A stretch of 64,000 nt of DNA, from assembly GCA_021463465.1 (NCBI GenBank), contig JAJTYH010000002.1, positions 73,799-137,798 of the forward strand, in the 5' to 3' direction. This document shows positions 8,465-24,614 of the stretch, piece by piece; position 1 is the stretch's first letter; the number at the start of each line of letters is the position of its first letter. A program made the position numbers and the translations under genes. A model generated the notes under the pieces. It searched no databases, was not told the DNA's origin, and was given only the letters and a program-made list of their open reading frames with translations. Source of the stretch: a bacterium (GTDB lineage: Bacteria > Patescibacteriota > Dojkabacteria > SC72).

Positions 8465-9403
8465 ATGAAATCAAAAATAGTGGGTTCAATATTTGCTCAC
8501 GCCAGTGGAGATTACCTTGGTATGCCCGTTGAATTTGCTTCTACACCCGCACAGGTACAGGATTTCTTCGGTAGTGAAGGCATAAGACCTATTGATACTA
8601 ATAGCAGGGGAACGAAACCAGCTGGTTACTATACTGATGACACGGCTATGATGCTGTGTTTAGCCCAGAGTCTCATAGACAAAGGATTCGATACCTTAGA
8701 TCAATTCCAGAAATATAAGAAGTGGGCTTTTGAAGGATATATGTCTGCTGATGGAAAGACTTCTTTTGGAATAGGACAGAATACATTAAGGAAACTAATG
8801 TGGCAGAAGCCGGAAGAAATACCTACAGCAATTCATAGCAACGATAAAGAAGGTGGAAACGGAGCATTAATGAGATGCCTTCCTATTGGACTCATATACC
8901 ATAACAATACTGATGATGTAGTTGATAAGAGTATAAAATCAGCACTTGTTACGCACAACAATACCATTGCGGTTTGGACTACAGTTGTATTCAATACACT
9001 CATAACATACTGCCTGCATAATATTGAGAAAGAGGGGTTTGTATCAAAACTCGCAACAGAGCCCTACTATAAAAATATCCCCGCTGAAATAAAGAAAGTG
9101 CTGGATAGACTAGGTAATCTAAAAACGGAGGAGCTCAAGACCAGTGGATACTCACTTAATACCTTGGAGGTCGCTCTGCATTCATTTTTCAGCTCTGATA
9201 GTCTGGAAGCTGCTATCAAGGCATCAATTGGTTTTGGAGGCGATACAGATACTCAAGGGGCGGTCACAGGAGGTCTTGCTGGAGCATATTACGGTTATGA
9301 AGCAATTCCAAAAGAATGGACAGCTCACTTATTAAATAAAGAATTGATGCAAGAGATCTCAGATAAGATAGCCTCGATATCACTTAGCACACCTAATACA
9401 TAG
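8465..9403 (+). CDS. ADP-ribosylglycohydrolase family protein
   Basis: N-terminal GSIFAHASGDYLGMPVEF and GYYTDDTAMMLCLAQSL motifs characteristic of ARH/DraG family; 312 aa. Confidence 0.75.
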   Translation: MKSKIVGSIFAHASGDYLGMPVEFASTPAQVQDFFGSEGIRPIDTNSRGTKPAGYYTDDTAMMLCLAQSLIDKGFDTLDQFQKYKKWAFEGYMSADGKTSFGIGQNTLRKLMWQKPEEIPTAIHSNDKEGGNGALMRCLPIGLIYHNNTDDVVDKSIKSALVTHNNTIAVWTTVVFNTLITYCLHNIEKEGFVSKLATEPYYKNIPAEIKKVLDRLGNLKTEELKTSGYSLNTLEVALHSFFSSDSLEAAIKASIGFGGDTDTQGAVTGGLAGAYYGYEAIPKEWTAHLLNKELMQEISDKIASISLSTPNT

Positions 9404-9619
9404 GTAACCTTCCAGTGATTCGATTAACTTTCCACATCTTCTGGAACACTTAGGACATTGAAACCAAAGTCTTTCTCCTCCACCATTTGTATTTGTTGTT
9501 GTCATCGGGACATTAACTCCATCAAGATCAAGCTTTGACTTGATTAAAGCTTCGATTACCTTACTCCGAACACTTCTAACCAGCTCATGAATTGTAATGC
9601 TCTTAGAATAACCCGTCAT
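9380..9619 (-). CDS. small zinc-ribbon protein
   Basis: 79 aa with CPKCSRRCG...CIRC (CxxC...CxxC). Confidence 0.35.
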   Translation of the reverse strand: MTGYSKSITIHELVRSVRSKVIEALIKSKLDLDGVNVPMTTTNTNGGGERLWFQCPKCSRRCGKLIESLEGYLCIRCAK

Positions 9620-10185
9620 TGATTCTCGGGAATTATTTTATCCTTTTGCACAACATTCAACTGCTGATTAGTTCCAAATAGATTGTTTAGAGTACCAATC
9701 TTCACATTTATTGGACGTGCTCTGAGCTGGATAAGCAATTTCATATTGTCCTCGTAATGTTTATGCGCTCTATCCAGTTCTCGACCTATCATTGAACAGT
9801 ATCTGTCTCTGCCAAATAACAAATCGGGATTATTTAAGAAGCTGTTAAACGATGTTGTTAGCTGAAGAATACGCACATACGAAACTGCTATATTATGAAT
9901 GATTATTTTCTCCGAAGGTTTAACGACTTTCAGTTCATTCTCAAGGTCTCTCACAATCTGAACAATGTACGACTTATACTCCTCGTCTACAGCTTTAGAA
10001 AGTAGTGAAAGGTTATCCATGTTCAATGAATACATATACTTTTTTGCTAGAAGACACGTTTCAACAGATGCTTTCCCTTCATCTTTGTTGTATGACTTCA
10101 CTAGCTCATCACCCAGAAATTCTGGGTCATCCTTGTTTAAATATATTTTCTTAACCTCTTTAATCCCTTTATTCATACTATTCAT
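9616..10185 (-). CDS. hypothetical protein
   Basis: 189-aa ORF, 4-nt overlap with downstream zinc-ribbon ORF (operon-like). Confidence 0.45.
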   Translation of the reverse strand: MNSMNKGIKEVKKIYLNKDDPEFLGDELVKSYNKDEGKASVETCLLAKKYMYSLNMDNLSLLSKAVDEEYKSYIVQIVRDLENELKVVKPSEKIIIHNIAVSYVRILQLTTSFNSFLNNPDLLFGRDRYCSMIGRELDRAHKHYEDNMKLLIQLRARPINVKIGTLNNLFGTNQQLNVVQKDKIIPENQ

Positions 10186-10241
10186 TTTACATCAAAATAA
10201 TGATTAAGTAACATTACCGTACCGCCATCAAAGCTGTATAA

Positions 10242-11144
10242 TTGACGTATCTAAATCAGATTAAATATATGGAACCATTAACAAGCCTTAACCTCAATAT
10301 AATCCCTCCGGAAAAGCCTAAAAAAAGAGGAAAACTTAAATATAAAGAAGGATTTTTAGTTGAGAATAAATACGATGACCCGTATATAGAGGTCGAGTAC
10401 ACTGTAAGAATTAAGAATGCGATTTCAATGTCGAAATTACTTAATGTCTGTCCATGGTTTGTAGAAATTGTAAGTAAATTTAGAAAAACACATAAACTAG
10501 AGGGCAATGAATTCACTCTAGAAGATCTAAAAATACTTAATGAGGATCTATTCTCCGAATGGAATATTGAAACGCACCCATACAAAGTCAATTTATCTTT
10601 TATTGATAAACTTAGCCTCAATCGTGCAAGGGAGATATATAAAAGTGCGATACATATGTGTGAAGAGCTAGAAACAGCCAGTAATTTTAAAACTATTGAG
10701 AAGTACCTAAAAAGATTTGACACTCATTTAGTCAATATTCTCTTAACAAATTCAATTGATCTAAGTAGATACTCCGTATATGCAGGCATTGCTATTATTC
10801 CAGGAGAGTTCCTAATAAATGTTGATAGGAATGCTAAGTATATTGAACTTGATTCGGAAGTTACTATCCCAACCTTAGTTTCATATATCAAGAACTATAG
10901 CTTTGCAATAAGTTCCGGTCAGGAGATTGATGCTCTCAATATTGATGATAAAACAGTTGATCTTTTAAGATACGGTTTTGTAGATAGCTACGGTAAATAT
11001 AATAAGTTGATGGTAAAGAGTAGCCATTATCCCCATCAAAAGTATTCTGCGATAAAACTTAAGGATATGTTTAAACGGAAGAAACAGTATCTTAAGGAAA
11101 AAGGGCTCATTTCATTATTTAGGGAAACTTCTACAGCCAGTTAA
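10242..11144 (+). CDS. hypothetical protein
   Basis: 300-aa ORF, no recognisable motif. Confidence 0.45.
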   Translation: MTYLNQIKYMEPLTSLNLNIIPPEKPKKRGKLKYKEGFLVENKYDDPYIEVEYTVRIKNAISMSKLLNVCPWFVEIVSKFRKTHKLEGNEFTLEDLKILNEDLFSEWNIETHPYKVNLSFIDKLSLNRAREIYKSAIHMCEELETASNFKTIEKYLKRFDTHLVNILLTNSIDLSRYSVYAGIAIIPGEFLINVDRNAKYIELDSEVTIPTLVSYIKNYSFAISSGQEIDALNIDDKTVDLLRYGFVDSYGKYNKLMVKSSHYPHQKYSAIKLKDMFKRKKQYLKEKGLISLFRETSTAS

Positions 11145-11208
11145 AATTACCGCCGACTTACTAAAAATTTAGCTGTAGGATTGGGTTGTTAAGATAAAAC
11201 CCAATCAA

Positions 11209-11463
11209 ATGAAGAATCATAAGATATCAGATACATTTTTAGCAGCCACATTGGTCGCATTAGGGATATCAATAGCAGACATTGATAGAACCAATCCTCA
11301 GAGGTGCATATTCCTTTTTGAAAGTTCCGAATTAGTAGATCAGTACATTCAGCAGTACTTGCTAAATCAACTGAAGGTAAATCCTGCAACACTCTTGCAG
11401 TCTTACAAATACGTTTTATCTCAGTTACACGACAACAGACCTGATGACTTCTTCAATAGATAA
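11209..11463 (+). CDS. hypothetical small protein
   Basis: 84-aa ORF upstream of primase; followed by a second short ORF (11444..11581) in +1 frame. Confidence 0.35.
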   Translation: MKNHKISDTFLAATLVALGISIADIDRTNPQRCIFLFESSELVDQYIQQYLLNQLKVNPATLLQSYKYVLSQLHDNRPDDFFNR

Positions 11464-11599: not shown

Positions 11600-13681
11600 A
11601 TGAATAACATCAAAGAATTACTGCAAAAGCACAACATCACAATCAAAAGAGAAGTCGGACATGAACTCATGGTTGATTGTCTCTTCAATAGCTGCGACGA
11701 AGATAGCAGACAGAATGAAGCACATCTTTATATAAATTCACAGACCGGTGCATTTGATTGTAAAAAATGCGGAACAAAAGGAGGTTTCAAAGAATTACTA
11801 GGAATACTTGGGGAAACTGAAAAAACCGAGCAGTCCAATCAGTACTCCCCATATAATTATAGTAAATACGAAGAAAAATTAACACAGGAAGACATTAACT
11901 ACCTGATCAACAAAAGAGGATTAACAATTGAGACTATCAAGAACCATCATATCGGTGTTGCGAACTTCTATAAATCACGATGGCTAACAATCCCATACTT
12001 TGATGAGCAGGGTATATATAAAGAGGCATACAAGCTTCGCACTACTGTAGAAAATTATTCTCCCAAGTATAAAGTCTATCCGATTGGTGCACACATGACA
12101 CTATACGGGCTTGATAAACTCAACAAAGATTTAGACTACGTAATTATATCTGAAGGGGAGTTTGATTGTATGCTTCTACATCAGGAAGGCATGAATGCAG
12201 TCAGTGTCGGAACGGGTGCAGCTACCTTCAAAGATGAATGGTTTGAAGCACTTACTCCATACAAGAAAGTATATATTTGCTTTGATAATGATGAGGCAGG
12301 TCGGAAAGGAACAGAACAGTTAAGGACAAAACTTAGTTTCAAATGTCCAGACAAACGAATATTCAGAATAAACTTTGATTCTAAATATAAAGATATAACT
12401 GAACTTCATGTAGCTGGAGGGTCAATTGAGGATGCGTTCGCAAATGCAGAAGAAATGGAAACATATGCAACGCCTAGAAATGAGATGTCCATCCAAGAAC
12501 TACAAGGCATCCTTGATGCAACAATCAAAGAGGACGATGTAAACAAGGTCGTAACATTCCTCGCAATGCTAACGATGTATACCAAGGATTCCCAGCTGAA
12601 TTTGATGTATTCAGCACCATCGTCAACAGGAAAAAGCTACATACCGATTGAAGTATCAAAGCTATTCCCAGAAGAAGATCTTATTCAATTGGCTTATGTT
12701 TCTCCGACTGCCTTTTTTCACGATCAAGGGGAGTATGATGAAAGTAAGAATCAAATAGTAATGGACTTTCATGGAAAGGCTATAATATTTCTTGATCAAC
12801 CAAATTCTATACTCCTTGAGCGATTAAGACCGATTCTCTCTCATGATAAAGAGGAAGTACTAATCAAAATTACTGATAAGAACTTAAAAGGTGGGAATAA
12901 GACCAAGAATGTTTTGATGAAAGGATTTCCAGCAGTGATATTCTGTACAGCGAATACCAATACTAATGAACAAGAATTAACAAGAGTATTGCTCCTCAGT
13001 CCAGAAACGACACAAGAGAAAATCAAGTTTGGTATTAAAAACAGAATATTACTAGAAAGTGATAGGGAAGCCTACTACGATAAGATAGAAGCTAATATTG
13101 AAAGACAGGAGCTGAAAAAGCGAATCAAAGCTATCAAATATTCAAATATTAATCATGTGAAGGTGAACAACTGGCATGAGATATATGAAGAGTACATTGA
13201 GTCTGAACAGGTACTCAAACCAAGGCATCAACGAGATTCAGGAAAGCTTATTCAATTAATTGTTTCGTTGGCACTACTCAATCAATGGAACAGGAAGAGA
13301 ATTGATGATAAGACAATTGAAGCCTCTGAACAGGATGTTAAACAGGCTCTAGTACTCTGGAAAGAGATATCGTTAGCTCAAGACCTTGAAATACCACCAT
13401 ATGTCTTAAGTTTCCTTTACCAAGTCGTTGGACCAACAGCAATTGAACATAGTAAAAATCCAATCGTAGATGATATCGTACTAGGCAAAAGACTACTTAT
13501 AAAGCTCTATAGAGAAATTTACAAAGTGATCGTTAGCCCTAAGGAACTTCATAACAAATATATGGCTCCACTTGTAAATGCAGGAATTTTTGAAGAAATT
13601 CAGGGGTATTCGGATGGTCGTGAAAAAGATTATCTATTAACAGAGTTTGGGCTAGAAAAAATAAATATTAAGCAAGGGTAG
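11600..13681 (+). CDS. DNA primase/helicase of mobile element (CHC2 zinc finger + Toprim + P-loop NTPase; P4-alpha-like)
   Basis: CDEDSRQNEAHLYINSQTGAFDCKKCG zinc-binding motif; Toprim VIISEGEFDCMLL...ICFDNDEAGRKG; P-loop SAPSSTGKSY; 693 aa. Confidence 0.8.
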   Translation: MNNIKELLQKHNITIKREVGHELMVDCLFNSCDEDSRQNEAHLYINSQTGAFDCKKCGTKGGFKELLGILGETEKTEQSNQYSPYNYSKYEEKLTQEDINYLINKRGLTIETIKNHHIGVANFYKSRWLTIPYFDEQGIYKEAYKLRTTVENYSPKYKVYPIGAHMTLYGLDKLNKDLDYVIISEGEFDCMLLHQEGMNAVSVGTGAATFKDEWFEALTPYKKVYICFDNDEAGRKGTEQLRTKLSFKCPDKRIFRINFDSKYKDITELHVAGGSIEDAFANAEEMETYATPRNEMSIQELQGILDATIKEDDVNKVVTFLAMLTMYTKDSQLNLMYSAPSSTGKSYIPIEVSKLFPEEDLIQLAYVSPTAFFHDQGEYDESKNQIVMDFHGKAIIFLDQPNSILLERLRPILSHDKEEVLIKITDKNLKGGNKTKNVLMKGFPAVIFCTANTNTNEQELTRVLLLSPETTQEKIKFGIKNRILLESDREAYYDKIEANIERQELKKRIKAIKYSNINHVKVNNWHEIYEEYIESEQVLKPRHQRDSGKLIQLIVSLALLNQWNRKRIDDKTIEASEQDVKQALVLWKEISLAQDLEIPPYVLSFLYQVVGPTAIEHSKNPIVDDIVLGKRLLIKLYREIYKVIVSPKELHNKYMAPLVNAGIFEEIQGYSDGREKDYLLTEFGLEKINIKQG

Positions 13682-13847: not shown

Positions 13848-15458
13848 ATGGAACTAAAAAGAAAAGCTTCCAAATATATTCTTTATGCACGTAAATCAAC
13901 TGAAGGAGAAGACCGACAACAGGCTTCTATAGAATCTCAAATTGCTGAAATGCAAAAGATCGCTTTGGAATACGGTTTGAATATTGTAGAAGTCCTTTCG
14001 GAAAGCCGATCCGGATATAAACTTGGAAGACCTGAATTTCAACGCATGATAGGTATGCTTGATAATGGAGAAGCAGATGGAATTCTTTGTTGGAAACTTT
14101 CAAGATTGTCTAGAAATGCCGATGATGGAGGGAGGATAATAGGAATGTTGCAGAGAGGAGAAATAAAGCATATCAAGACTTACGATGGTGGTTGGTATCC
14201 CGAAGATGACCACATGATGATATTCCTAGAGTTAGGTATAAACAACAAGTTCAGCAAGGATCTCGGAACGGATACTAAGCGTGGTTTAAGGGCAAAAGCT
14301 GAACGAGGATGGTACCCATGCGCAACGTTACCTTTAGGGTATAAACACCATCCAGAAGAGGTTTTAAAGAAACATTCTGACATGGAGATCATACCTGATG
14401 AGCCCATGTTCAGTATAATAAAGGCCATGCTCAAAGAATTAGCGGAGAAAAAATTTTCTCCGAAGCAAGTCTTTGATCATGCTATCGCTAACGGCTTCCG
14501 CACACGTAAAGGTGGCATACCTTCTTTCTCTGTGTTCTATCGTATAGCGGAACATCCTTTCTATTATGGAGAATACAAATTCACAATTGACGGAGAGGAG
14601 CAAGTGTTTCAAGGAAAGCATAAACCAATGATAACAAGGGCTGAATACGAGTCTATACAGAAGGTTAAAGGTCGCGGTCACATTGTAAAACAGCAAAAGT
14701 ATTTCCACTCATTCACTGGACTAATGAAATGTGGAGAGTGTGGGTGTTTCATTACCGGAGATCCCACTAGACTGAAGACAAACAAGAAAGGGGAAGTTCG
14801 GAAGTTTACATACTATCATTGCACAAAAAAGAAAGGGCCATGTTCGCAACCTCATATCACACAAGAAGACCTGATAGAAACATTTGATAAAGTACTTAGC
14901 ATGATTCATATCCCCGAGGAATTAGTTGATTATGCATTAGAGGAAATACAAAAAGAGCATCAGGAGAAGAAGCTTGCAAGAATGGGTGTACTAAAGAATA
15001 ACCAAAAGGAGTATGAAGGACTAAGTAAAAAGCTAGATTTACTTACAGAGAAAAACTTAAACGGAGTGATAGATGATGAGGAATACAAAAGAAAAAGAGA
15101 TCAGATTAAATCCCATATGTCACTAGTACAATCACTAATCAACACCAATGATAGTTCAAGAGATGAATGGCTGATGAGAGTAAAGAAGAGGTTATCGTTC
15201 GCAGAAAGGGCATGTAGAACATTCAGAACAGGGTCTCCGGAGCTAAAGAAGGACATCATGATGGAGTTACAGTCTCAAATCATCGTTAAGGATAAGAGTA
15301 TAAAGCTAGATCTAGACCCATTACTAAGCCTCTTTTTCAAGAAGCCTAATCAACACGATCTTGAAAAAATATTGGTTCGAACCAAAACAAATGAAGTAGG
15401 GACAAACATATTCGAAATTTTCTTTTCCAACAATTCCATCTGGGGTGGAAGATGTTGA
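13848..15458 (+). CDS. large serine recombinase (island integrase 1)
   Basis: N-terminal resolvase domain YARKSTEGEDRQQASIESQ (catalytic Ser), recombinase domain, zinc ribbon CGECGC...C, coiled-coil; 536 aa; 3' end of gene carries tggggtggaagatg repeat of tRNA-His 3' end. Confidence 0.9.
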   Translation: MELKRKASKYILYARKSTEGEDRQQASIESQIAEMQKIALEYGLNIVEVLSESRSGYKLGRPEFQRMIGMLDNGEADGILCWKLSRLSRNADDGGRIIGMLQRGEIKHIKTYDGGWYPEDDHMMIFLELGINNKFSKDLGTDTKRGLRAKAERGWYPCATLPLGYKHHPEEVLKKHSDMEIIPDEPMFSIIKAMLKELAEKKFSPKQVFDHAIANGFRTRKGGIPSFSVFYRIAEHPFYYGEYKFTIDGEEQVFQGKHKPMITRAEYESIQKVKGRGHIVKQQKYFHSFTGLMKCGECGCFITGDPTRLKTNKKGEVRKFTYYHCTKKKGPCSQPHITQEDLIETFDKVLSMIHIPEELVDYALEEIQKEHQEKKLARMGVLKNNQKEYEGLSKKLDLLTEKNLNGVIDDEEYKRKRDQIKSHMSLVQSLINTNDSSRDEWLMRVKKRLSFAERACRTFRTGSPELKKDIMMELQSQIIVKDKSIKLDLDPLLSLFFKKPNQHDLEKILVRTKTNEVGTNIFEIFFSNNSIWGGRC

Positions 15459-15631
15459 GTTTTACAAACATTCAACGCAAACTACTCTTAGTGAAATGAT
15501 AAACCTTCAAAATTTACTTAACAAGGCGATTAAAGAATTCACAGAGATTGTAGATAGGCATAAAAACGATAATAATTCTTCTAATGCTATTAGTTACATT
15601 CTATGATATTAGGGGAGGTTATTACAAACAA

Positions 15632-16021
15632 TTAAGAGACATCAGTAGTAATATCCTTGTCAGAATACCTTACTAACCGTCCTGGAGAAAATTGTGATAC
15701 TCCTGTAGTAACAGTATCTCCAAAAAACAGCCTCTTATTCAACTCAGAAGGTATCGGTACCTGGCCAGTAAACATACCATCGGTAATTCCAAGTTTACGG
15801 TAATATGCTTCAACGGAAGAAGTTCCAGTATCTAGGTCTCTCACTAGTTCCGATAAATGAGACCTTTGTGGGTTATTGAGAATATCTTCTTTAATATCGC
15901 AATATACTTTATAAAAATCTTCGAATAAATTTTTGCAACTTATAAACAACTCTTTATTTCTAGTAAACTTCAAGTGCAAACCTGGATTATTAATATGAAC
16001 TAAGATACCTTTTTTAGTCAA
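15632..16021 (-). CDS. hypothetical protein (last gene of NTase operon)
   Basis: 129-aa ORF, co-directional with NTase cluster. Confidence 0.4.
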   Translation of the reverse strand: MTKKGILVHINNPGLHLKFTRNKELFISCKNLFEDFYKVYCDIKEDILNNPQRSHLSELVRDLDTGTSSVEAYYRKLGITDGMFTGQVPIPSELNKRLFFGDTVTTGVSQFSPGRLVRYSDKDITTDVS

Positions 16022-16096
16022 GAAGTAATGTGCAGTTCCATTCCTTATTGCAAGACGAATTGTTTTACCACATTCATCAGTGTATATCTCTTTATA

Positions 16097-16312
16097 TTAC
16101 TTTAAGTTCTGCCAAAATGCATAATAAGCATCATCACCTTCTTTGCCGGACATAATCATTCCGATTAATTCCATTCCAGAGACAATAGTTTGTAGACAAG
16201 GATATGCGACTCTACCGTATCTTTTCGCGGGAATCGAAAAAATTGATTTGATGTCTTCAATAAGATATTTGTCTACTTTATCAAAAAAAGCTGATAAATC
16301 TGAATTATCCAT
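16097..16312 (-). CDS. hypothetical small protein
   Basis: 71-aa ORF overlapping upstream gene by 8 nt. Confidence 0.35.
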   Translation of the reverse strand: MDNSDLSAFFDKVDKYLIEDIKSIFSIPAKRYGRVAYPCLQTIVSGMELIGMIMSGKEGDDAYYAFWQNLK

Positions 16313-17099
16313 TTTTCTTCAGTGATTTTATAAATATTATTGTCTCAACCGTAAAGAATAAAACTAATCGTGCTTCATTAAGACTAAATTCTGTTTTTTC
16401 AGCATCACTTCCTTGGTGTTTGACACCCTTGTTATTATAAAAGACAAAATTAGTTGCGAATTCTTGAATCATGGCAATAAGTCTTTCTGAAACTTGATGT
16501 GAAGCAAGATAGTTTTCTAATCTTGATTTTGCACCATCTTGCTTTGCGACATTCTTTTCTAGACTTGAATCGTAAATAGTTTCTCTTAAAGCATTTTCAA
16601 AAGCTAGCCGAGAATCATCAATAACATTTCTTAAATATTTGCCTTCGGACAGTTTATCGTAAGCGGAAATAATTAGTTCTTCAACATTCTTCACATCTTT
16701 TAAAAGGGGGAGGGAAGTAGATAGTCTCTCCTTATCAATTGTTTGTTCGCTTTCCTCTTGGACTGCCTTTTTGAAACTTTCTAACCATCTACTAACCTGA
16801 TAGAAACTCTGTTTTAAGTATTCAGGGTCAATATGGTCAGAGACCACATCACCCGGCCTTGGCACGTGATGCCATACTGTTGGCATACCTGGAATCCCAT
16901 GCCCTTTTTCAAGGATAAGATTCAAAATTTCGTTATCGTCACCAATCAATACTTCTAGATTTGATACAAACTCTTGTGTTTCATCCTTTAATCTTTTCAA
17001 GTGTTCCTCTTTTACGACATTATTATTTATTAGCTTCTGATATCTAAGAAGCTTGCTATCGAATATATTAATTTCTTTACTTATATCTCCTATCACCAT
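16305..17099 (-). CDS. hypothetical protein (NTase operon component)
   Basis: 264-aa ORF, tightly packed downstream of 2TM protein; no recognised domain. Confidence 0.5.
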   Translation of the reverse strand: MVIGDISKEINIFDSKLLRYQKLINNNVVKEEHLKRLKDETQEFVSNLEVLIGDDNEILNLILEKGHGIPGMPTVWHHVPRPGDVVSDHIDPEYLKQSFYQVSRWLESFKKAVQEESEQTIDKERLSTSLPLLKDVKNVEELIISAYDKLSEGKYLRNVIDDSRLAFENALRETIYDSSLEKNVAKQDGAKSRLENYLASHQVSERLIAMIQEFATNFVFYNNKGVKHQGSDAEKTEFSLNEARLVLFFTVETIIFIKSLKKNG

Positions 17100-17107
17100 A
17101 AGTATAA

Positions 17108-17719
17108 TTATTCGAAAATATCCATTATGTTAATTGTATCTTTCTCAAGCCTTTCAAATTTAATTACCCCAACAGTCCTCCTATTCTCATCATTAGTGTA
17201 ATGTCCTTCAAGCAGGTTGGAGTTTATTACTTTCAAATAACTAAAACCTTCATGCATTCCACCGTTTGTACTATTTTGTAAAGTGCTATCTTTCGGCCTA
17301 TTGATGTATTTGTACAAAAGATACCATCTACCATTTTGTTCTTGTTCCATTAAGCAAATAGTGCTATCTGAACACGAATTAGCAAACTCAGTTGAAACAA
17401 ATAATTTTAAATAATTCTGCTTGATTTCAGCAACACCTTCATACTCATTGGCACGATTATCATAGGAAGATTTCACAGTAACTTTCCATTTTCCCGAAAG
17501 ACAGGGTTTAAATCTCAGACCAAAAACATATGCAATCGTTGTAACAAACTTCGGGTAATCCAACTTCCAAAGAAAATTATTCCACAACGCAACCAGGAAG
17601 AGAATAATTACAACAACAGCCGAAGTAGGAATAACCTTATTGTCGAAAAATGAATTCACACCATGAATAATTAGGGTAATTGTAATCAAAACAGATATAG
17701 TTTTCTTATAATCATTCAT
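17108..17719 (-). CDS. 2-TM membrane effector-like protein (SLATT/Cap15-like architecture)
   Basis: Two N-terminal TM helices (VLITITLIIHGV..., AVVVIILFLVALW) followed by ~140-aa soluble domain; 6 nt downstream of nucleotidyltransferase gene. Confidence 0.5.
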   Translation of the reverse strand: MNDYKKTISVLITITLIIHGVNSFFDNKVIPTSAVVVIILFLVALWNNFLWKLDYPKFVTTIAYVFGLRFKPCLSGKWKVTVKSSYDNRANEYEGVAEIKQNYLKLFVSTEFANSCSDSTICLMEQEQNGRWYLLYKYINRPKDSTLQNSTNGGMHEGFSYLKVINSNLLEGHYTNDENRRTVGVIKFERLEKDTINIMDIFE

Positions 17720-17725
17720 CGAAGT

Positions 17726-18475
17726 TTACCTTTCAATATACTCTCCAGCTTTATTTAAATATGTTATAGCATCGTTTAAATCCCAGTTATTCGTAAATAG
17801 TGAATCTTGTTCATTTGCACACTGAAAACCACCAATACGATTAGACTTCACAGCATCAAACAAAAACTGCATTGTTACTATTGTAGAATTAAATAAATCT
17901 CCATCAAAACATGGGCTAGAACAATTGTAAATTAGATTCTCTATGAAGTATGACGGGGCTAATCCTTTCTGCAAGTCTCCAGTTTCTTCAAGTTCTCGTT
18001 TAATATTCTTGAATATCCTCACTACTTTTTTGAATACTCCATCTGTATCAATATTTTTTGACTCACAGTTTTTCAAGTGAAGTTTTGGATAATTAATTAT
18101 TTGTGTATTCTCGTCTGTATCATAGAATTTGATACCAGGAACAAAGTCTTGGTCGCTTAGTGATAGAAACCTTTTGTAGAACCGGAAAGAAAAACAAGGA
18201 ACAACATCAGCATTAACCTTTCCATAACTTTCGGGAATCCTCAAACATTTAGCATGAGGTTCAATGTTTTTAAATGTTTTTACCAAGGCTAATAACAAAG
18301 CCTCTTTATATTCTTTAAACGTAATCAAAGCATCCGAAAAAGATTGTTCATACTTAACCTTTTCCTCATCAGATAATTGCGTAATATCACGGCCAAAGAC
18401 TGACTGAAGTTCAACCACAATATCAACATCACTATTATTAGAGATGTTTGTATGGTTTGCGTATGACCCTTGCAA
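17726..18475 (-). CDS. pol-beta superfamily nucleotidyltransferase, SMODS/CD-NTase-like (true N-terminus probably extends upstream to ~18649)
   Basis: GS-x12-DVD (GSYANHTNISNNSDVDIV) and third acidic residue in NADVVPC (DhhP); in-frame upstream region encodes expected helix ...FSLSNFTYDVYLQ but lacks ATG/GTG/TTG. Confidence 0.6.
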   Translation of the reverse strand: MQGSYANHTNISNNSDVDIVVELQSVFGRDITQLSDEEKVKYEQSFSDALITFKEYKEALLLALVKTFKNIEPHAKCLRIPESYGKVNADVVPCFSFRFYKRFLSLSDQDFVPGIKFYDTDENTQIINYPKLHLKNCESKNIDTDGVFKKVVRIFKNIKRELEETGDLQKGLAPSYFIENLIYNCSSPCFDGDLFNSTIVTMQFLFDAVKSNRIGGFQCANEQDSLFTNNWDLNDAITYLNKAGEYIER

Positions 18476-18792
18476 GTATACGTCATATGTAAAATTTGAT
18501 AGGCTGAATTTTTTCTTAAGTTCCTCAATATCTAAATTCGAATCTAATGCCTCAATTACTTTATCTTTTGTAGATATAATCTTCGCTGTTTCCTTTTCAT
18601 CAGGTGGACTAGCAAATTGAGTGAGTTGGTTTAAAGAAATCCTGTTTATTTATACTTAAATTACCAGCTAATTTTACCACTTTTCGATTATTTTTTAAGT
18701 AGATATCTCTATAAATCGTTAATATTTAAAACTAATTATGAGTTAATTTTCAGACTTGAAATAAAAGTCTTTTTAGCAAATAATGTAAGTAT

Positions 18793-19863
18793 ATGAGACA
18801 AGAAGGCCAATTCAAATTTATAGACTTATTTGCTGGTATAGGAGGTATTAGGATTGCATTTGAAAACGCAGGTGGTGTGTGTGTGTTTTCCAGCGAAATC
18901 AATGAAGCTTGTCAAAAGACTTATTATGCAAATTTCGGAGAGACACCACAAGGTGACATTACACTTATTAATCCCAAAGATATTCCGGACCATGATATAT
19001 TAACAGCCGGATTCCCTTGCCAGCCTTTCTCGATAAGCGGTAAAAGACTCGGTTTTGAAGATACTAGGGGAACATTGTTCTTTTATATCTTAAACATTGT
19101 TAAAACTAAAAAACCAAAAGTTGTTTTATTAGAGAACGTAAAGCATTTAGTACATCATGATAGAGGTAATACAATTAAGGTGATTCTTAGAAGCTTAGAG
19201 GAACTTGGTTACAATGTGTCATGGAAGGTTCTGAATGCGAAAGATTTTGGGCTTGCACAGAATAGAGAACGAATTGTTATTGTCGCCAGCAAAGCAAATA
19301 AGTTCAATTTCAATTTAATGCCGTCAAGAAACGAGAAAGTCTTTATTAAAGATATCTTGGAAAAAGATGGTGATTTTGAATATCTTAAACCGGAAGAATA
19401 TACAATTCTTGATGAGAAGTACTGGAAACGTCAGATTAGCGGACTTATCTTTTGTGGATACAGAAACAAGAAAATAAGACAAAATGGAGTAAGAGAAAAC
19501 ACAATACACCTCTCCAGAGTTCATAAGCAACCAAATAGAATTTATTACATAGACGGGACACACCCGACAATTCCATCTCAAGAGACATCTGGTAGATTCT
19601 GGATATACGATGGGAAAGTAGTTCGTAAACTAACAATAACAGAGTGTTTCAGATTGATGGGGTTCCCTGACGAGTATAAGAAAGTTTCTGCAACAGGTGA
19701 ATTATATAAACAAATAGGTAATTCAGTACCAATAAACTTGATAAATTCCGTAGCCAAAAGTATTGTGAATCAAGAGTTACTCAATGCAAATGATATAAAC
19801 ACAAAACATATTCCGGAACTGTCCAAACAATTGAATTTTACATCACTTAATTATGGAGAATAA
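18793..19863 (+). CDS. DNA (cytosine-5)-methyltransferase
   Basis: FAGIGGIRIAF (motif I), GFPCQPFS (motif IV), ENVKHL (motif VI); 356 aa. Confidence 0.9.
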   Translation: MRQEGQFKFIDLFAGIGGIRIAFENAGGVCVFSSEINEACQKTYYANFGETPQGDITLINPKDIPDHDILTAGFPCQPFSISGKRLGFEDTRGTLFFYILNIVKTKKPKVVLLENVKHLVHHDRGNTIKVILRSLEELGYNVSWKVLNAKDFGLAQNRERIVIVASKANKFNFNLMPSRNEKVFIKDILEKDGDFEYLKPEEYTILDEKYWKRQISGLIFCGYRNKKIRQNGVRENTIHLSRVHKQPNRIYYIDGTHPTIPSQETSGRFWIYDGKVVRKLTITECFRLMGFPDEYKKVSATGELYKQIGNSVPINLINSVAKSIVNQELLNANDINTKHIPELSKQLNFTSLNYGE

Positions 19864-20962
19864 CGATATTAGAAACTATCTCGAGGAAATTTATGGTAAA
19901 GCTGAATCGAATTATAAAAATTCAATTCTAAAAAACTATGATTCAATTGACCCAAAGATTAGGGAGTATCTGGAGTTAATAGTTTCAAGTGTGGAAGATT
20001 TTCTAGGTGTATTAAATGTAACAGTTACAAGTTTAACCTACAAATCTTTAAACCCCAATCAAGATATTCGAAACCACCAAGCACAACTTGAAAAGGGTTA
20101 CTCTGGCAGGAGTTTTGACACACGATATATTGCACCATTTCTGAAATCGAAAGGACTAAAATCTATGAAGGAGTCGGGTTGGCTTACCCGTTCCTTGGAA
20201 CAGGCATCTCCTTATACCTTGGATTACAGGGGTAAAATCAGAGACTTAAACGTTAAAGAGGCCTTTTTAAAGACTCTGCATCATGTAGAAGAGGAAAATG
20301 GAAATTCTTTACTTATGCTTGAATATCTTTTACTTCTCCTTATCAAACAGCGTGAAGACAGCAAAGTAGAAATAGAACATATTAGCAACCCTGACCTGCA
20401 GATATCAAAAATACTAGAAATGCTTAGTATTCACTTTGAACAAGCAACTTCAAATGGGAGGGCAAGATTACCCGTACTTGCAATCCACTCTATTTATCAA
20501 CTATTAGTTAATGAATTAGAAAGGTATGATGAGAAAGAGTTACAGGAACTAAGTTCGCATACATCTGCAGATTTAAGACACGGCGATATCGGAGATGTTC
20601 AAGTAAATTATGCTGATGGGACTCCCTTTGAGGCCGTTGAAGTAAAGTACGGCATAAAAATAACAGAATCACTCATAATCGATGCATACTCGAAAATTAA
20701 GCAAACAAAAGCAAAAAGATACTATATGTTATCAACGGTAGAAAGTTCCAAAAAAGAACTAGAGGAAATTATTGCAAAGATTAAAGATGAACACGGTTGC
20801 CAAATAATAGTGAATGGGCTACTAAAAACAATAGAATATTATCTTAGACTCATAAGTAATCCAGAACTTTTTGTGAACATTTACACTGACCTTGTAACAA
20901 GTGACAAGGTAATTAAAACCGAACACAAAGTTCTTTGGAAAAAACTTCTACAAAATTTGTAA
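19853..20962 (+). CDS. putative type II restriction endonuclease (PD-(D/E)xK) cognate to MTase at 18793
   Basis: Start overlaps MTase stop by 11 nt; HGDIGDV...FEAVEVKYG fits D-x(n)-(D/E)xK nuclease motif; 369 aa. Confidence 0.5.
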   Translation: MENNDIRNYLEEIYGKAESNYKNSILKNYDSIDPKIREYLELIVSSVEDFLGVLNVTVTSLTYKSLNPNQDIRNHQAQLEKGYSGRSFDTRYIAPFLKSKGLKSMKESGWLTRSLEQASPYTLDYRGKIRDLNVKEAFLKTLHHVEEENGNSLLMLEYLLLLLIKQREDSKVEIEHISNPDLQISKILEMLSIHFEQATSNGRARLPVLAIHSIYQLLVNELERYDEKELQELSSHTSADLRHGDIGDVQVNYADGTPFEAVEVKYGIKITESLIIDAYSKIKQTKAKRYYMLSTVESSKKELEEIIAKIKDEHGCQIIVNGLLKTIEYYLRLISNPELFVNIYTDLVTSDKVIKTEHKVLWKKLLQNL

Positions 20963-20968
20963 TTACGA

Positions 20969-21700
20969 TTATTTAGAGAGATATTTTGCTTCAATTTTCA
21001 AAACATTTGCTGTATCCAAAAGCCCAGCAGTAATATTCAAAGTGCTATCACTAATCATTTCATTATATGTTTTAATGTTTTCCAATCTCCTTGATGGCGT
21101 ATCTCCATCTAAAAAGGATTTAGCCTCTCTGGACCAGCCTCTCCAGTTACTGCAATAGCCTATGACTTCACTATTCAATTCATCAAACTTTATATAAGCG
21201 TTTTGAGGCCACTTGTCAGTGGAAAAAGCATATTTATTGAAGTCGCACTCCCTTGCATAATCCTCGATATCAAAGACTGTTGCATAAACACTTACACCAG
21301 ATTTCCCACTCACTGACGCTTGATAATTTTTGTAATAGGTATCAAAGTTCTTAGTACCGGTTGTTACATTTTTGTAATATTTCAAGTAATCATTTTGAAT
21401 TTGTTTCTGTTCTTCAACAGTTAGTTGTTCCCACTGGGGTCTATTTATCTTCTTTGCGGAGTCTGAATTCGTCCCGCTGAAACCTGAAATTAATCCTGAA
21501 ATACCTGCAACTGCAAACATAATAACAAAGACTAAAGCGATAAGTGACATACATCCACTGTTCTTTTTAGGTTTTTCGTTATTTACCGTTGAAGGGGATG
21601 AGGAGAGAATACTTTTCTTCTCTTTATCAAACTCTTCCTGAGTAATCACTTTGTCTTTGAGGAGTTTTGAAAGCTTTTCAAGCTGTTCGGCCTTTTCCAT
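20969..21700 (-). CDS. SHOCT-domain membrane protein
   Basis: N-terminal SKLLKDKVITQEEFDKEKKSIL (SHOCT-like), single TM helix (CMSLIALVFVIMFAVAGISGLI), extracytoplasmic domain; preceded by structured RNA copy 2. Confidence 0.5.
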   Translation of the reverse strand: MEKAEQLEKLSKLLKDKVITQEEFDKEKKSILSSSPSTVNNEKPKKNSGCMSLIALVFVIMFAVAGISGLISGFSGTNSDSAKKINRPQWEQLTVEEQKQIQNDYLKYYKNVTTGTKNFDTYYKNYQASVSGKSGVSVYATVFDIEDYARECDFNKYAFSTDKWPQNAYIKFDELNSEVIGYCSNWRGWSREAKSFLDGDTPSRRLENIKTYNEMISDSTLNITAGLLDTANVLKIEAKYLSK

Positions 21701-21739
21701 AACTAGATTCTAATAATTTATCTAGCTTGGTCTAAAAGG

Positions 21740-21890
21740 CAAAGGTGGCCTCCCGAACCAAGCGATAAGTCCTTTCGAACCTATCCTGCACTCTTTCGAG
21801 TACAGACCCAAAGCACGAGTGCCGGTCAGGAGACCGCTTTTACGTGCTTTGGGTTTTATATCCATGCCTATTTCTAGGTTTAGGAGTTGT
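21740..21890 (-). ncRNA. structured leader/ncRNA, copy 2 (homolog of 7557..7710)
   Basis: On minus strand: TGTATAAT promoter (plus 21896-21901), CCTA-GAAA-TAGG, 11-bp stem CCCAAAGCACG/CGTGCTTTGGG (plus 21807-21817/21843-21853), GTACTC-GAAA-GAGTGC, AGGTTC-GAAA-GGACTT, tail CGCTTGGTTCGGGAGGCCAC; compensatory base changes relative to copy 1. Confidence 0.6.
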
Positions 21891-21972
21891 GGTCAATTAT
21901 ACAATTTTGAAATCGTATTGCATATATATTGGACGTATAAACATTGTACTCAAAACATGTTAATATTAGCTT

Positions 21973-22473
21973 ATGAAATCAAGAGAATATGCCAATCTAG
22001 CAAAAAAGGCTTACAACGAATTTAAGAATATTAAAGGGACAAGAGGGAAAAGGCTAGACTACTCACAAATATCCTTTCTCAAAGAAGCTATAGATGCGGT
22101 ATCCAGGTTAATCCTCTATGAAAAGACTAAAAAGCATTTTGTTCGTGCAAGTAGTACTTGGAAATTTGTCACCATAATAGCGAAGCATTCTCCTCAAAGT
22201 GCGATTCAGCGGATACATATCAATTATCTTTCAGATTCAGAAAAGTTTCTAAGAGAATCTTCAAGAGACACTAAAGTTGAAACTGGGAAATTTGAGACAA
22301 CAATTTTATATTTAGAGGACCTTTACAAGAAACTCTGCGATATTGCAGATGACTTGGACGATATTATGCAAGACATTCCAGAGGATGAAATACCAGAAGA
22401 CGATGATGATAACAATGGAAATATTACTGTTCAAGACGATGATGGAGAAGTGACAGTAGGTTTAAAGAAATAG
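21973..22473 (+). CDS. hypothetical protein with acidic C-terminal tail
   Basis: 166-aa ORF; C-terminus DIPEDEIPEDDDDNNGNITVQDDDGE. Confidence 0.45.
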   Translation: MKSREYANLAKKAYNEFKNIKGTRGKRLDYSQISFLKEAIDAVSRLILYEKTKKHFVRASSTWKFVTIIAKHSPQSAIQRIHINYLSDSEKFLRESSRDTKVETGKFETTILYLEDLYKKLCDIADDLDDIMQDIPEDEIPEDDDDNNGNITVQDDDGEVTVGLKK

Positions 22474-22483
22474 TGCAACAATT

Positions 22484-22858
22484 ATGCAACAGTTTAAGCC
22501 AAATGAACTACAACTTAAATTGCTAGAAACGATGCTTGACACAAGTGTTTCCTCGAATATCACGGAGATATGTAGTGTCGCAGGAATTGACAGAAGCACA
22601 TATTACCGATGGATGAAAGACCCAAGCTTTGTATATTGGTTTAGTAAGGCCTGGAAAGAGTCTGTAATGCCCCTAGAACCTTTATTAGACAAAATAGCGA
22701 TAAACAATGCCTCTAAGGATTTTAGATACTACAAACTGATTCAGGAGAAGTACTTTATTAAAGCAAAAGCATCTCCTTTTCTCATAAATGTAAATAGTGC
22801 AGATAGGTTACTAGATGCAGTTGATAAGTTAGAAGCGTTATATGCGAATGAAGAATAA
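22484..22858 (+). CDS. small HTH DNA-binding protein (possible excisionase/recombination directionality factor or terminase-small-subunit-like)
   Basis: ITEICSVAGIDRSTYYRWMKD helix-turn-helix; immediately upstream of serine recombinase. Confidence 0.4.
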   Translation: MQQFKPNELQLKLLETMLDTSVSSNITEICSVAGIDRSTYYRWMKDPSFVYWFSKAWKESVMPLEPLLDKIAINNASKDFRYYKLIQEKYFIKAKASPFLINVNSADRLLDAVDKLEALYANEE

Positions 22859-24558
22859 TATATCTCCACGGATGAGTGAATACATTGAATCCTACATTCG
22901 AACTCATCAAAGAGAATCAATTGATGTAACAAAAGAAGAGAAAAAGTATGTTTTATATTTAAGAAAGTCCTCGAAAGATAAAGACAAACAGGTGCAATCA
23001 ATTAAGGACCAGCGAAAAGATTGTTACCAATACGCAAAAAGAGAAAAGATAAGGATTGAAAGAATATTTGAAGAAAGCCAATCAGCAATGATTTCTGAAG
23101 GGAGGGATGCTTTTAAAGAAATGATGGAAGAGATAAAGAAAGGAACATACAACTCAATTCTAGCTTGGCACCCTGATAGGCTGGCGAGGAATATGAAGGA
23201 TGCTGGTGAGATTATAGATTTATTAGATAAAAAGATTCTCATGGATTTAAAATTCCCTTCGTACACTTTCGTAAATAACGGTAGTGGTAAGTTGGCATTA
23301 GGAGTGCAATTTGTCTTGGCAAAAAATTACTCTGACAATCTATCAGTCGTAACTAAAAGAGGTAATCATAAAAGGTTTGAAGATGGCGAGGGAATAAGAA
23401 GCAATAAATACGGATATAAATTAGTTCGAGTTGGTGACGCAAAAAAAATATAGACCAGATGGAAAGAACTTTGAACTTATTCAAAAAGGATTTCAAATGG
23501 CTTTAAACGGGCGACCTGTTGCGGAAATTGCCGACTTCATAAATCGAGAGGGGCTAACCTTAGAAGTAAACGTTAAAAAAGACAATGAAAAGAAAGGCCT
23601 AAAAAAGGGTAAACAGCACATTCATATTACATTACTTCCCCAATCTGTATCTAAATTACTTGCGAATCCCTTCTTTGCCGGAATCCATGTAGTAGGGGCT
23701 AAGGTCTACGATTATAGAGTACTTGATACAGGATTTTTGCCAATCATTTCCGAGGATGACTTTATAAAATTGAGAATTAAACTAGAGTCAAACTCTAACT
23801 TTGTGAAAAGAAGAACGGTAGACAATTCCAGGTTCCTTCCGTTAAAAGAGATGATTACTTGCAATTACTGCAAGGGTCCTATGTATGCTGGAGTAACAGG
23901 TAACGGCAAAGGCAATTATTACCTTCGATACAGATGTGAAACGGAGGACTGTCGGCGAAGAGATAAGGCTTATAAAAAGAAGTACAAACTAAGGGAAAGT
24001 GTACGTGGTGTTCTTATTATTGACTTCGTATTCGAATATTTTAAAAACCTTGATGTGCCAAGGGATTTATACGAGAACTGGGTAACTGAAATAAAGAAAA
24101 TGCGAAAGAAATTCCTTAAAGGCTATTCAACTGAGATGCGAAAAATAGAGTGGCAAATAAAAAAATTAGAAGACGAGATAAGTGTATTGACGCTTACACT
24201 AGCTGATACAACAAAGAAAGCTGTAAGTAGAAGTCTAGAAGGAAAGATTAATGAAAATGCTGATTTAATCGAAGACTTAAGAGATAGAGAACAAGATTTA
24301 AAAAAACAGAGAGATAATTATGAAGTGATTTCTGATAAGACTTTATGGTCGTACGAGAGTTTTACAAACTTCCTGAAAAACGTTGCTAATATAGTAAAAA
24401 GGAAGAGAAGTATGGAACTCCTTGATAAAGTTGTTCGATTGGCCTTTACAAACATTGTGATAGGTAATGGGAAAGTGGTTTCATATAAACTAAAACCGGC
24501 ATTCGAAGCTATCGAAAAACTGCGTCCAATAAACCATGGGGTGGAAGATGGGACTTGA
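22842..24558 (+). CDS. large serine recombinase (island integrase 2), apparent frameshift at A8 tract 23433..23440 (ORFs 22842..23453 + 23431..24558)
   Basis: N-terminal resolvase domain YLRKSSKDKDKQVQSIKDQ (catalytic Ser) in first ORF; recombinase/zinc-ribbon (CNYCKG...C) and coiled-coil in second; 3' end overlaps tRNA-His 3' end. Confidence 0.75.
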
Positions 24559-24614
24559 ACCCACAACCCCCTGTGCCACAGACAGGTGCTCTAACCGATT
24601 GAGCTACATCCACC
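24537..24614 (-). tRNA. tRNA-His (GTG) with encoded G-1 and CCA
   Basis: Cloverleaf: G-1, acceptor GTGGATG/CTTCCAC, anticodon loop CTGTGGC (GUG), T-arm GTGGGTTCAAGTCCCAT, discriminator C + CCA. Confidence 0.85.

Follow-up and report, generated by a model that had tools for sequence, protein, structure and literature searches.

Why should two large serine recombinase genes, lying one behind the other on a Candidatus Dojkabacteria-like chromosome of the candidate phyla radiation (CPR, or Patescibacteria), both end in the sequence of a tRNA-His 3' end? The stretch of DNA in which they lie, hereafter the window, is 64 kb long and was analysed by sequence comparison with related loci, which are designated by L numbers. 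The answer reached here is that the locus is very probably a tandem array of small integrative islands at tRNA-His. An earlier note on the window had proposed sequential site-specific insertions at this one tRNA, and that proposal is supported by the breakpoints of homology in the loci L008 and L014, by the recurring overlap between recombinase genes and tRNA genes and by the existence of other tandem arrays.

Insertion of island 2 at the 3' end of tRNA-His

The putative integration target, tRNA-His(GTG), occupies 24537..24614 on the minus strand, in agreement with its first reading: ARAGORN places the gene at 24537..24613, residue G-1 adds 24614, and the Rfam tRNA model matches with 65.8 bits. 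An exact repeat search shows that its 3' acceptor strand with CCA corresponds on the plus strand to the 14-mer TGGGGTGGAAGATG at 24537..24550 (junction J5), which recurs as a direct repeat on the plus strand at 15441..15454 (junction J4), where it joins the arm of recombinase 1 to the left end of island 2. Counted over the entire window, the 14-mer has exactly two copies, 15441-15454 and 24537-24550, both on the plus strand, even with 2 mismatches permitted, so that the frequent chance occurrence elsewhere that might have undermined the proposal is not seen. In shuffled sequence, with 2 mismatches allowed, the mean number of matches is 0.23, and 1 of 100 shuffles gives two.

The comparison with relatives that the earlier note had called for was made first with L008, a Candidatus Dojkabacteria metagenome-assembled genome that is the closest genome match and whose homologue of recombinase 1 is 87% identical. 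BLASTN aligns L008 2148-3877 with window 13722-15454 and L008 3864-3942 with window 24537-24615; the two alignments overlap in the 14-mer only, and homology breaks at 15454 and 24537. In L008, a primase gene is followed by a recombinase reading directly into tRNA-His with the identical 14-mer. The same recombinase-tRNA-His fusion is present in L014 (69% identity of the recombinase 1 homologue), whose right flank is syntenic with the window (kinase, peptide deformylase, PGA_cap and tRNA-Leu-CAG). Because the homology of L008 and L014 breaks precisely at both 14-mers, 15455-24550 is a 9.1-kb insertion with its crossover inside the 14-mer and, being missing from both relatives, an evolutionarily recent one. 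The two relatives thus represent the empty site for island 2, the body of which (15455..24536) makes 9096 bp with one copy of the repeat and is absent from the orthologous site in both. The segment first delimited as 15455..24549, bounded by direct repeats with a recombinase reading into the right one, therefore holds with its right end at 24550. No uninterrupted site was found among the related loci for island 1 or for the older segments.

Intact tRNA genes with a direct-repeat copy of their end at the far side of the insertion are the signature used by Islander. Island 2 has this signature, with repeats identical at 14/14 positions, and the left end of island 1 shows just a degenerate TGGGAC core at 4491. 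A T6:T67 mismatch of the acceptor stem lies inside the 14-mer; its interpretation as an integration scar was rejected, the GGAAG form being the commonest, including at loci without a recombinase. Among metagenome loci with a readable 3' end, the perfectly paired GGATG form occurs both with and without recombinases, and the window-type 3' end is present in most tRNA-His genes on related metagenomic contigs, occupied or not.

Two further observations concern this tRNA. At about 5996-6073 of L022, a tRNA-His lacks the T-arm and part of the anticodon arm, its TGGGGTGGAA core being fused to ...ACCGATGCTCTAACC, and its left flank is that of the normal locus L113; this truncated gene reflects either a faulty assembly or a deletion at the att site. 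Furthermore, L015 (14555-14689), L016 (14511-14642), L079, L096 and L130 have a glmS ribozyme in front of glmS, at a distance of about 3 kb from tRNA-His, a feature by which synteny on the chromosomal side of the att site may be recognized.

Two diverged recombinases with a common target

Recombinase 1 (13848..15458, plus strand) is an intact protein of 536 aa with the Pfam domains Resolvase, Recombinase and Zn_ribbon_recom and a PHROG integrase match (E=2.7e-63). As first observed, the 14-mer lies within its last codons, the open reading frame (ORF) ending in ...SIWGGRC before the stop. Recombinase 2 (22842..24558, plus strand) is split, with Resolvase in 22842..23453 and the Recombinase and zinc-ribbon domains in 23431..24558, in another frame; this second ORF has the C-terminus ...NHGVEDGT and its stop at 24558 indeed overlaps tRNA-His, ending 22 nt within it. 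The domain sets of both thus uphold their identification as large serine recombinases, with the correction that the second consists of two ORFs frameshifted at a run of eight A. The catalytic domain PF00239 is matched with E=7.6e-21 by recombinase 1 and 6e-20 by the N-terminal part of recombinase 2, and the translations contain the motifs YARKST and YLRKSS. PF07508 (28.3 bits) and PF13408 (41 bits) are both above cut-off in recombinase 1; in recombinase 2, PF07508 is above it (31.2 bits) and PF13408 (22 bits) is under its cut-off of 25.3. The closest solved structure by sequence is the catalytic domain of TP901-1 integrase (3bvp, E=1.5e-8). Catalysis by both enzymes is inferred.

In recombinase 2, the A8 run (23441-23448) holds a +1 frameshift at which one frame gives way to the other, and the split recurs in independent Logan assemblies of the same strain. 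Seven A at this place would give a 571-aa ORF, which, when fused accordingly, aligns over 95-100% of its length to unbroken homologues of 530-560 aa. Since these homologues are uninterrupted, the frameshift does not represent conserved recoding and is either a disruption or a switch by slippage; a programmed frameshift as a conserved feature was rejected, every homologue being a single ORF. The run could serve phase variation or reflect plain inactivation.

The two recombinases share 28% identity over 156 residues of the catalytic domain. With so little identity they are not mutual duplicates, and the target is common to diverged lineages; furthermore, they use different frames across the 14-mer, which means that the repeat is conserved as DNA and not as protein. 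Homologues of recombinase 1 number 1790 at E<=1e-20 and those of recombinase 2 number 410, the named sources being Patescibacteria, and the farther relatives of recombinase 1 belong to Peribacteria and other Patescibacteria. Scans of IMG/VR with both recombinases for a viral origin found no relatives, and Pfam scans across the array found neither a tyrosine integrase (Phage_integrase) nor a further recombinase.

The start of recombinase 2 is overlapped by a gene for a helix-turn-helix protein (22484..22858, plus strand; HTH_Tnp_1_2, small-terminase-subunit-like, by Pfam and PHROG). The same pair is found in L137 and in L138-142, and the protein is a candidate regulator or directionality factor.

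A recombinase reading frame that spans attP

The left ends of the segments bring in a second element of the answer. A junction repeat of about 90 nt, R, is present in three copies: Ra at L005 8976-9075, Rb at window 1-94 and Rc at window 4491-4575. L005 is, with L001, L002 and L007, one of the Logan assemblies of the window's own strain from other runs; junction positions to the left of the window were read from it and are given as negative window coordinates. Rb (junction J2, 1..94, plus strand) consists of a tail-coding module that encodes WGRWWKEVKEELYNL and a stop, followed by the palindrome GGTATACC and an AT-rich stretch; the T of its TGGGGT core sits one base left of the window. It is 85% identical to Ra, which lies 0.9 kb upstream of the window directly after a copper ATPase gene, and 77-78% identical to Rc. 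The window start, dismissed at first as a weak resemblance, is therefore a genuine junction. Rc (junction J3, 4491..4575, plus strand) is decayed, with TGGGAC for TGGGGT and a 1-nt deletion that kills the tail frame.

What R represents is indicated by relatives in which it directly follows a recombinase. The first 121 nt of L016 are an exact copy of the 3' end of its own recombinase with TGGGGT (also at 11257-11376), followed by R-like sequence and island genes; this start is an attP-type junction, whose source is a circle or else a tandem dimer. L015 and L138 are further tandem arrays, because in them TGGGGT and R-like sequence come after the 3' end of a different recombinase, and in L137 a recombinase 3' end and TGGGGT lead into the next island. 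From the junctions of L016, L015 and L138 it follows that R is the left-end (P') module of islands of the recombinase 1 type. In this family, the stretch common to attP and tRNA is TGGGGT only; the idea that the att core is embedded in the C-terminal coding end of the recombinase thus stands, with a core of six bases for the recombinase 1 family and not the entire 14-mer. A crossover inside TGGGGT is inferred from these layouts.

Read in the recombinase frame, R encodes WGRWWKEVK(E/Q)ELYNL and a stop in the window and in L134, and WGRWWKLVISELINLQ and a stop in L015 and L016. Comparison of the R copies in the WGRWW frame reveals zero changes at second codon positions and ratios of synonymous to non-synonymous changes of 3:1, 3:1, 3:2 and 5:0; in the other two frames the changes are mostly non-synonymous. 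Other metagenomic junctions keep the peptide motif WGxWW(E/K)E(F/V)(R/K) despite varied DNA, and homologues that do not end in a tRNA have related tails, such as MGDLLDIFRTKF and WGQLLDQFINRQ. This coding signature indicates that the junction module is translated. Together with the junction layouts, it leads to the conclusion that the ORF of the recombinase extends across attP and takes its last ~15 codons from the other end of the island. The left end of island 2 truncates the window's recombinase 1 to a tail of WGGRC and a stop; joined to Rb, the protein would end in ...SIWGRWWKEVKEELYNL and a stop. In a circular form, the ORF of recombinase 2 would gain 48 codons (15455-15598); since about 21% of 50-codon windows drawn at random from this strand lack a stop as well, the extension alone is no evidence.

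The palindrome GGTATACC occurs at 49-56, 1089-1096, 4538-4545 and 52403-52410, four times against 0.39 expected. Two of the copies lie in R repeats just past the tail stop and one between the convergent genes 129..1088 and 1109..1774; the palindrome may act in termination or bind a protein.

Extent and segments of the array

From left to right, the array comprises a copper-resistance segment of 4.3 kb, a one-gene segment of 0.9 kb, a restriction-modification (RM) segment of 4.5 kb, island 1 of 11 kb and island 2 of 9.1 kb. It totals about 30 kb, of which islands 1 and 2 form the tRNA-proximal part. The leftmost junction, J0, at about -5209 (L005 4663), reads TGGGGTAGATTATGGGAAGAAATTAGAAAC and is a second, R2-type left end, whose sequence encodes the tail of P0186 and, in L138-142, is also found behind recombinase P0124; the next, J1, at about -892, is Ra. 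Between J0 and J1, the copper-resistance module (CsoR-like repressor, HMA/DsbD_2 protein and P-type ATPase; L005 4663-8951, about -5209 to -921 of the window) looks like another recombinase-less segment of the array with junction-type ends.

The left end of island 1, which had been left unresolved, is indeed not an intact repeat; most likely it is J3, the decayed junction that lies at 4491. J4 is 10.96 kb away from J3, and in L015 and L016 (where the homologues of recombinase 1 are 59-60% identical) tRNA-His and the R-like module are separated by about 11.25 kb. L006 diverges from the window exactly at J3 (4491). On account of the Rc junction, this spacing and the divergence of L006, we take 4491 as the original left end of island 1. 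The composite 1-15454, bounded by the intact Rb, could still be a unit able to excise.

The RM module (129..4489) is without recombinase and encodes two proteins of no assigned function (129..1088, plus strand; 1109..1774, minus strand), a Dcm methylase (1870..3150, plus strand) and a MutH/Sau3AI-like endonuclease (3137..4489, plus strand), according to Pfam. The stop codon of the endonuclease is followed at once by TGGG. In L006, the module is found in a different array with 93.4% identity over 4477 nt, spanning precisely window 3..4470, followed by TAA and TGGGGTGGAAGAG. Over their shared part with the window (1-25458), the Logan assemblies show only two single-nucleotide differences, 3407 and 3993, both in this endonuclease gene: the T at 3407 of the window, an A in Logan, turns AAA (Lys91) into TAA at 3407-3409 and interrupts the reading frame, so that the restriction enzyme is predicted to be knocked out in the window's version of the module.

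Segments of comparable build are found elsewhere. In L134, a related metagenomic contig, 195-4760 begins with an R-like module, continues with four metabolic genes (aminotransferase, acetolactate-synthase-like thiamine pyrophosphate enzyme, cupin and threonine-synthase-like pyridoxal phosphate enzyme) and then leads directly into tRNA-His, without a recombinase; the ~20 nt before this tRNA-His resemble the ~20 nt before Rb. L138 holds a mosaic island in which a left end of the L016 type (R-like module identical over the first 60 nt, then ADP-ribosylglycohydrolase) is combined with a clade B recombinase. In L138-L141 (~14.3-16.3 kb in L138), the arrays downstream of an integrase of the recombinase 2 family contain a diversity-generating retroelement (DGR; bAvd and reverse transcriptase), as well as an MmeI-like type IIL RM enzyme and a RhuM-family gene.

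Cargo of islands 1 and 2 and the LOOT RNA

The cargo, including CBASS, Dodola and RM genes, is typical of mobile defence islands, and no phage structural or conjugation genes are seen in the gene content of the islands. Island 1 opens with a Dodola system (4621..6505, plus strand), in which adjacent, overlapping genes encode DolA (DUF6414, 4621..5385; PADLOC E=1.1e-64) and the ClpB-like AAA ATPase DolB (5372..6505; E=5.7e-119), the pair that defines the system. A PIN-domain protein follows on the minus strand (6522..7517; Pfam PIN_12/PIN_8 on the Logan gene call, with a weak PADLOC PDC-S34 match). Further on, a conserved block (8465..11463) contains an ADP-ribosylglycohydrolase (8465..9403, plus strand), a 189-aa protein (9616..10185, minus strand), a protein of 290-300 aa (10242..11144, plus strand) and a DUF5659 protein (11209..11463, plus strand; Pfam), in a gene order also found in L014, L015 and L016 through primase and recombinase. 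The primase (Toprim_2, 693 aa; 11600..13681, plus strand; Pfam, and PHROG DNA primase with E=1.8e-32) adjoins the recombinase in L008, L014, L015 and L016.

In island 2, a CBASS (17108..18475, minus strand) consists of a CD-NTase (17726..18475; PADLOC E=2.5e-74) adjoining a nucleotide-sensing effector of the Cap15 type with two transmembrane segments (17108..17719; E=9e-30; Pfam Cap15_CD_rec), the arrangement by which such systems are recognized. About 46 extra in-frame codons at the N-terminal side of the cyclase (18476-18613, minus strand) match the N-terminus of the PADLOC profile that is otherwise missing, and the TTG at 18475 is the first ATG, GTG or TTG codon in this frame; either the gene starts at a non-canonical codon or its start codon has been lost. 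A Dcm methylase (18793..19863; Pfam DNA_methylase, E=1.6e-100) and an overlapping 369-aa gene (19853..20962) occupy 18793..20962 on the plus strand. The latter yields no family match and from its position is a probable cognate endonuclease. Island 2 also holds a gene without an assigned family, a gene with a PDC-S32-like match and a 166-aa gene.

Both islands contain a LOOT RNA (RF03000). That of island 1 (7562..7686, plus strand) scores 59.8 bits against a gathering score of 46.4 and lies 58 nt upstream of the same-strand gene 7744..8448; that of island 2 (21764..21886, minus strand) has an Rfam score of 71.1 bits and lies 64 nt upstream of a same-strand SHOCT-domain gene (20969..21700). Both matches cover model positions 1-121, and hence the full model, above threshold. 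LOOT is also above the gathering score in L014 (3366-3490), L015 (4673-4801) and L016 (4668-4796), with its relative position in island 1 kept. The RNAs have a TATAAT-like box about 10 nt upstream and a same-strand gene 55-65 nt on the 3' side, and conservation extends past the Rfam model into a GGAGG...CCTCC hairpin, which could sequester the Shine-Dalgarno sequence. LOOT may be a cis-acting leader rather than a small RNA.

Occurrence of the architecture in other loci

Joint Genome Institute (JGI) metagenome contigs were scanned with the 5' half of the tRNA, independently of its 3' end, which gave 120 tRNA-His loci. Ten of these have a recombinase match that is aligned over at least 450 aa and reaches the tRNA, representing several clades; seven others have partial recombinases, and many have short C-terminal remnants touching the tRNA. 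The overlap with tRNA-His is read in two frames, ...WGGRWDLNPQPSVPQTDALTN and a stop in clade A, which includes recombinase 1, and ...GV(E/D)DGT and a stop in clade B, which includes recombinase 2. In L015 and L016, a 550-aa recombinase ORF stops 66 nt within tRNA-His, and further tandem arrays are found in L015, L137, L138-142 and L143-148.

C-terminal tails were inspected in the 240 homologues listed. At least 99 of these 240 end in peptides of the antisense T-arm (...DSNPRP... and ...GTRTRDL...), and 77 more terminate at or shortly past the core. With so many tRNA-antisense tails, the family appears to target the 3' ends of various tRNA genes, and the architecture appears, as far as the C-termini allow it to be judged, to be family-wide in CPR bacteria.

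Homologues of recombinase 1 are also found near tRNA-Ser genes in L012 and L013, which belong to distant Peribacteria/Patescibacteria. In L013 (9977-11854) a fragmented homologue adjoins tRNA-Ser(CGA) in the same arrangement, and in L012 two tRNA-Ser(CGA) genes flank the recombinase gene on opposite strands, 4005-4094 (plus) and 20192-20281 (minus).

Discussion

The data fit a model in which a complete island measures 9-11 kb and carries, at its right end, a large serine recombinase gene whose ORF crosses its own attachment site. The attP of the free form would be composed of the last bases of this ORF (P arm), the TGGGGT core and the left end of the island (P'), which in the recombinase 1 family would provide the final ~15 codons. 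The attB would be the 3' end of tRNA-His, TGGGGT being the reverse complement of ACCCCA, the end of the tRNA with its CCA. Recombinase made from the free form would recombine attP with this 3' end, and the island would land downstream of the tRNA; integration would at the same time swap the native tail of the recombinase for codons of the antisense strand of the tRNA, as seen in the WGGRWDLNPQPSVPQTDALTN tails of relatives. Because the core is the tRNA terminus (ACCCCA-3'), the tRNA is regenerated with its sequence unchanged. The next island would use the regenerated, tRNA-proximal core, with the older islands shifting outward, decaying and recombining into mosaics. Island 2, the attP of which shares 14 bp with the tRNA, would have inserted between recombinase 1 and the tRNA and displaced island 1, and the older segments to the left (RM, 1-4490; the one-gene segment; the copper-resistance module) would have lost their recombinases. 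This order of insertion is deduced, and so is any present mobility.

How far such an array is still alive is a separate matter. The frameshift in recombinase 2, the degenerate junction at 4491, the three segments without recombinase, the many metagenomic tRNA-His loci with remnants only and the nonsense mutation in the endonuclease gene would all be expected if the insertions were old and now fixed, with recombinases decaying or repurposed and nothing mobile. On the other hand, recombinase 1 is intact, the island 2 repeats are identical at 14/14 positions, the island itself inserted recently enough to be missing in L008 and L014, the L016 assembly has an attP-type junction, and the RM module is 93% identical in another context; we regard a wholly fossil array as somewhat unlikely. 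The array might also have been built chiefly by homologous or illegitimate recombination of pre-existing arrays at junction repeats and not by serial integration. The junction repeats of ~90 nt would offer homology for exchange, and both the mosaic island of L138 and the presence of the RM module in two different arrays are of the kind that such exchange would produce. However, the boundaries of island 2 match a 14-bp core to the base, which is too short for efficient homologous recombination; every complete island has at its end a recombinase of its own that reads into the core, and diverged recombinase clades share the target, all of which makes this origin distinctly unlikely.

A third possibility, which we consider improbable, is an integron-like platform on which serine recombinases residing at tRNA-His take up and rearrange, in trans, cassettes that lack a recombinase and have the junction module as their boundary. 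It finds an argument in the three recombinase-less segments that start with a junction module and end directly at a TGGG(G/A) core, in the discrete 4.5-kb unit seen in two contexts and in the metabolic segment of L134 with its like ends beside tRNA-His. Yet the right ends of these segments share no recognizable recombinase-binding arm, either mutually or with the recombinase 3' ends, only one unit has been seen in more than one context, and decayed remains of complete islands account for most of what is seen. Lastly, the 14-mer might have arisen by chance or by a coincidence of coding, and the recombinases might be resolvases or invertases without any connection to the tRNA. The repeat is short, and one of the shuffles did give two matches; nevertheless, the breakpoints of L008 and L014 fall on the repeat, the two genes read it in different frames, the overlap recurs in many independent loci, and the repeats are direct and not inverted. 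A coincidence is refuted by those breakpoints together with the recurring recombinase-tRNA overlap, and we give it practically no credence.

Several points weigh against serial, recombinase-driven insertion at tRNA-His, which we nonetheless prefer. With recombinase 2 frameshifted and the left junction of island 1 degenerate, the array may be immobile now. The L016 junction could stem from a tandem dimer rather than a free circle. Dyad symmetry in the reconstructed attP and attB sites reaches at best 10-11 complementary positions of 22, so the crossover is not placed by it. Simple serial integration gives no account of the precise right boundary of the RM module. Moreover, the tRNA 3'-end 14-mer (at most 2 mismatches) is absent from the 5-10 kb left flank of ten other recombinase loci, and the 8-mer GGTGGAAG/GGTGGATG has two matches in these ten flanks, both inside coding sequence; either the islands outreach the stored flanks or the shared core is about 6 bp. 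With this result, the 14-bp repeat may be particular to island 2.

The exchange of tails lends itself to a more speculative proposal, which we hold to be rather doubtful: that the recombinases exist in two forms, a conserved C-terminal helix (WGxWW(E/K)E(F/V)(R/K)... or of the xLLDxFRTxF type) being encoded only by the circle or by a compatible tandem junction and an unrelated tRNA-antisense tail by the integrated copy, and that the tail swap is a switch of directionality or activity throughout a CPR-wide clade, with LOOT as a further regulator. If true, the tail swap could replace or supplement a separate directionality factor; more generally, an ORF spanning attP suggests a way of coupling the form of an integrase to its state of integration.

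What the locus offers beyond itself is a large recombinase family that systematically uses tRNA-His and, judging from C-terminal tails, other tRNAs too. Its short att sites (recombinase 3' end, TGGGGT and ~25-50 bp of the left end, versus a conserved tRNA end) would be candidate integration systems for CPR bacteria, for which, to our knowledge, almost no genetic tools exist, and the family would be a source of new orthogonal serine integrases for engineering. The arrays furthermore show the build-up of defence islands and of other cargo (copper resistance, metabolic genes and, in L138, a DGR) in reduced CPR genomes. The orphan LOOT RNA gains an organism and a genetic context, the Dojkabacteria islands; as far as we know, it had come only from marine metagenomes, assigned to no organism and to no function. 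LOOT is often found near tRNAs, and its residence in islands of tRNA-targeting recombinases would explain this proximity.

Comparison with known systems

Our literature search for serine-recombinase tRNA islands in CPR/Patescibacteria found no description of such elements. Regarding serine integrases in general, the Islander study of 2015 stated that they were not known to target tRNA genes (PMC4383910), and the TIGER study of 2020 listed 14/297 computational tRNA cases, new to the literature then, and called for experimental proof (PMC7192596).

By their Resolvase, Recombinase and zinc-ribbon domains, the enzymes of the window belong to the class of the phiC31, Bxb1, A118 and TP901-1 prophages and of SCCmec/ccr. 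As in elements of large serine integrases, the integrase gene lies beside attP at the end of the element, and attP and attB share only a short identity; such elements integrate unidirectionally, leaving attL and attR, a behaviour to which that of the present islands, known from sequence, is likened. Unlike the serine integrases described, which mostly have protein-coding targets, those analysed here would use a tRNA 3' end, have an ORF across attP with a change of tail, and reside in CPR hosts. Reportedly, phages of the phiRSM type with small serine recombinases integrate at the 3' end of tRNA-Ser, and they thus share with the islands a serine-family recombinase and a tRNA 3' end as attB; their enzymes, however, are small and resolvase-like, without Recombinase and zinc-ribbon domains, and belong to filamentous phages of Proteobacteria.

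We know of no serine integrase with an attP inside its gene. An attP in the integrase coding sequence, a tRNA target and different products in the free and integrated states are found in the integrases of SSV-type fuselloviruses, which are, in contrast, tyrosine recombinases whose gene is divided into two large portions; in the islands, the exchange would affect only the ~15 last codons, and the catalytic and DNA-binding domains stay intact. Integrons are a poor match, for there is no IntI and the junction repeat is a coding tail with a short palindrome, not an attC-type imperfect inverted repeat. tRNA genes are classically the targets of tyrosine integrases. In architecture, the islands of the window resemble the tRNA and tmRNA islands of tyrosine integrases of the Islander type, with their intact tRNA, displaced 3'-end repeat, tRNA-proximal integrase, cargo and tandem arrays, every member of which is equipped with a separate integrase and fragment. 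They differ from these by their serine recombinase, by a displaced fragment of 6-14 bp (acceptor 3' strand and CCA only) and by an integrase ORF that overlaps the tRNA on the opposite strand. The element unites the workings of a serine-integrase element with the appearance of an Islander-type array.

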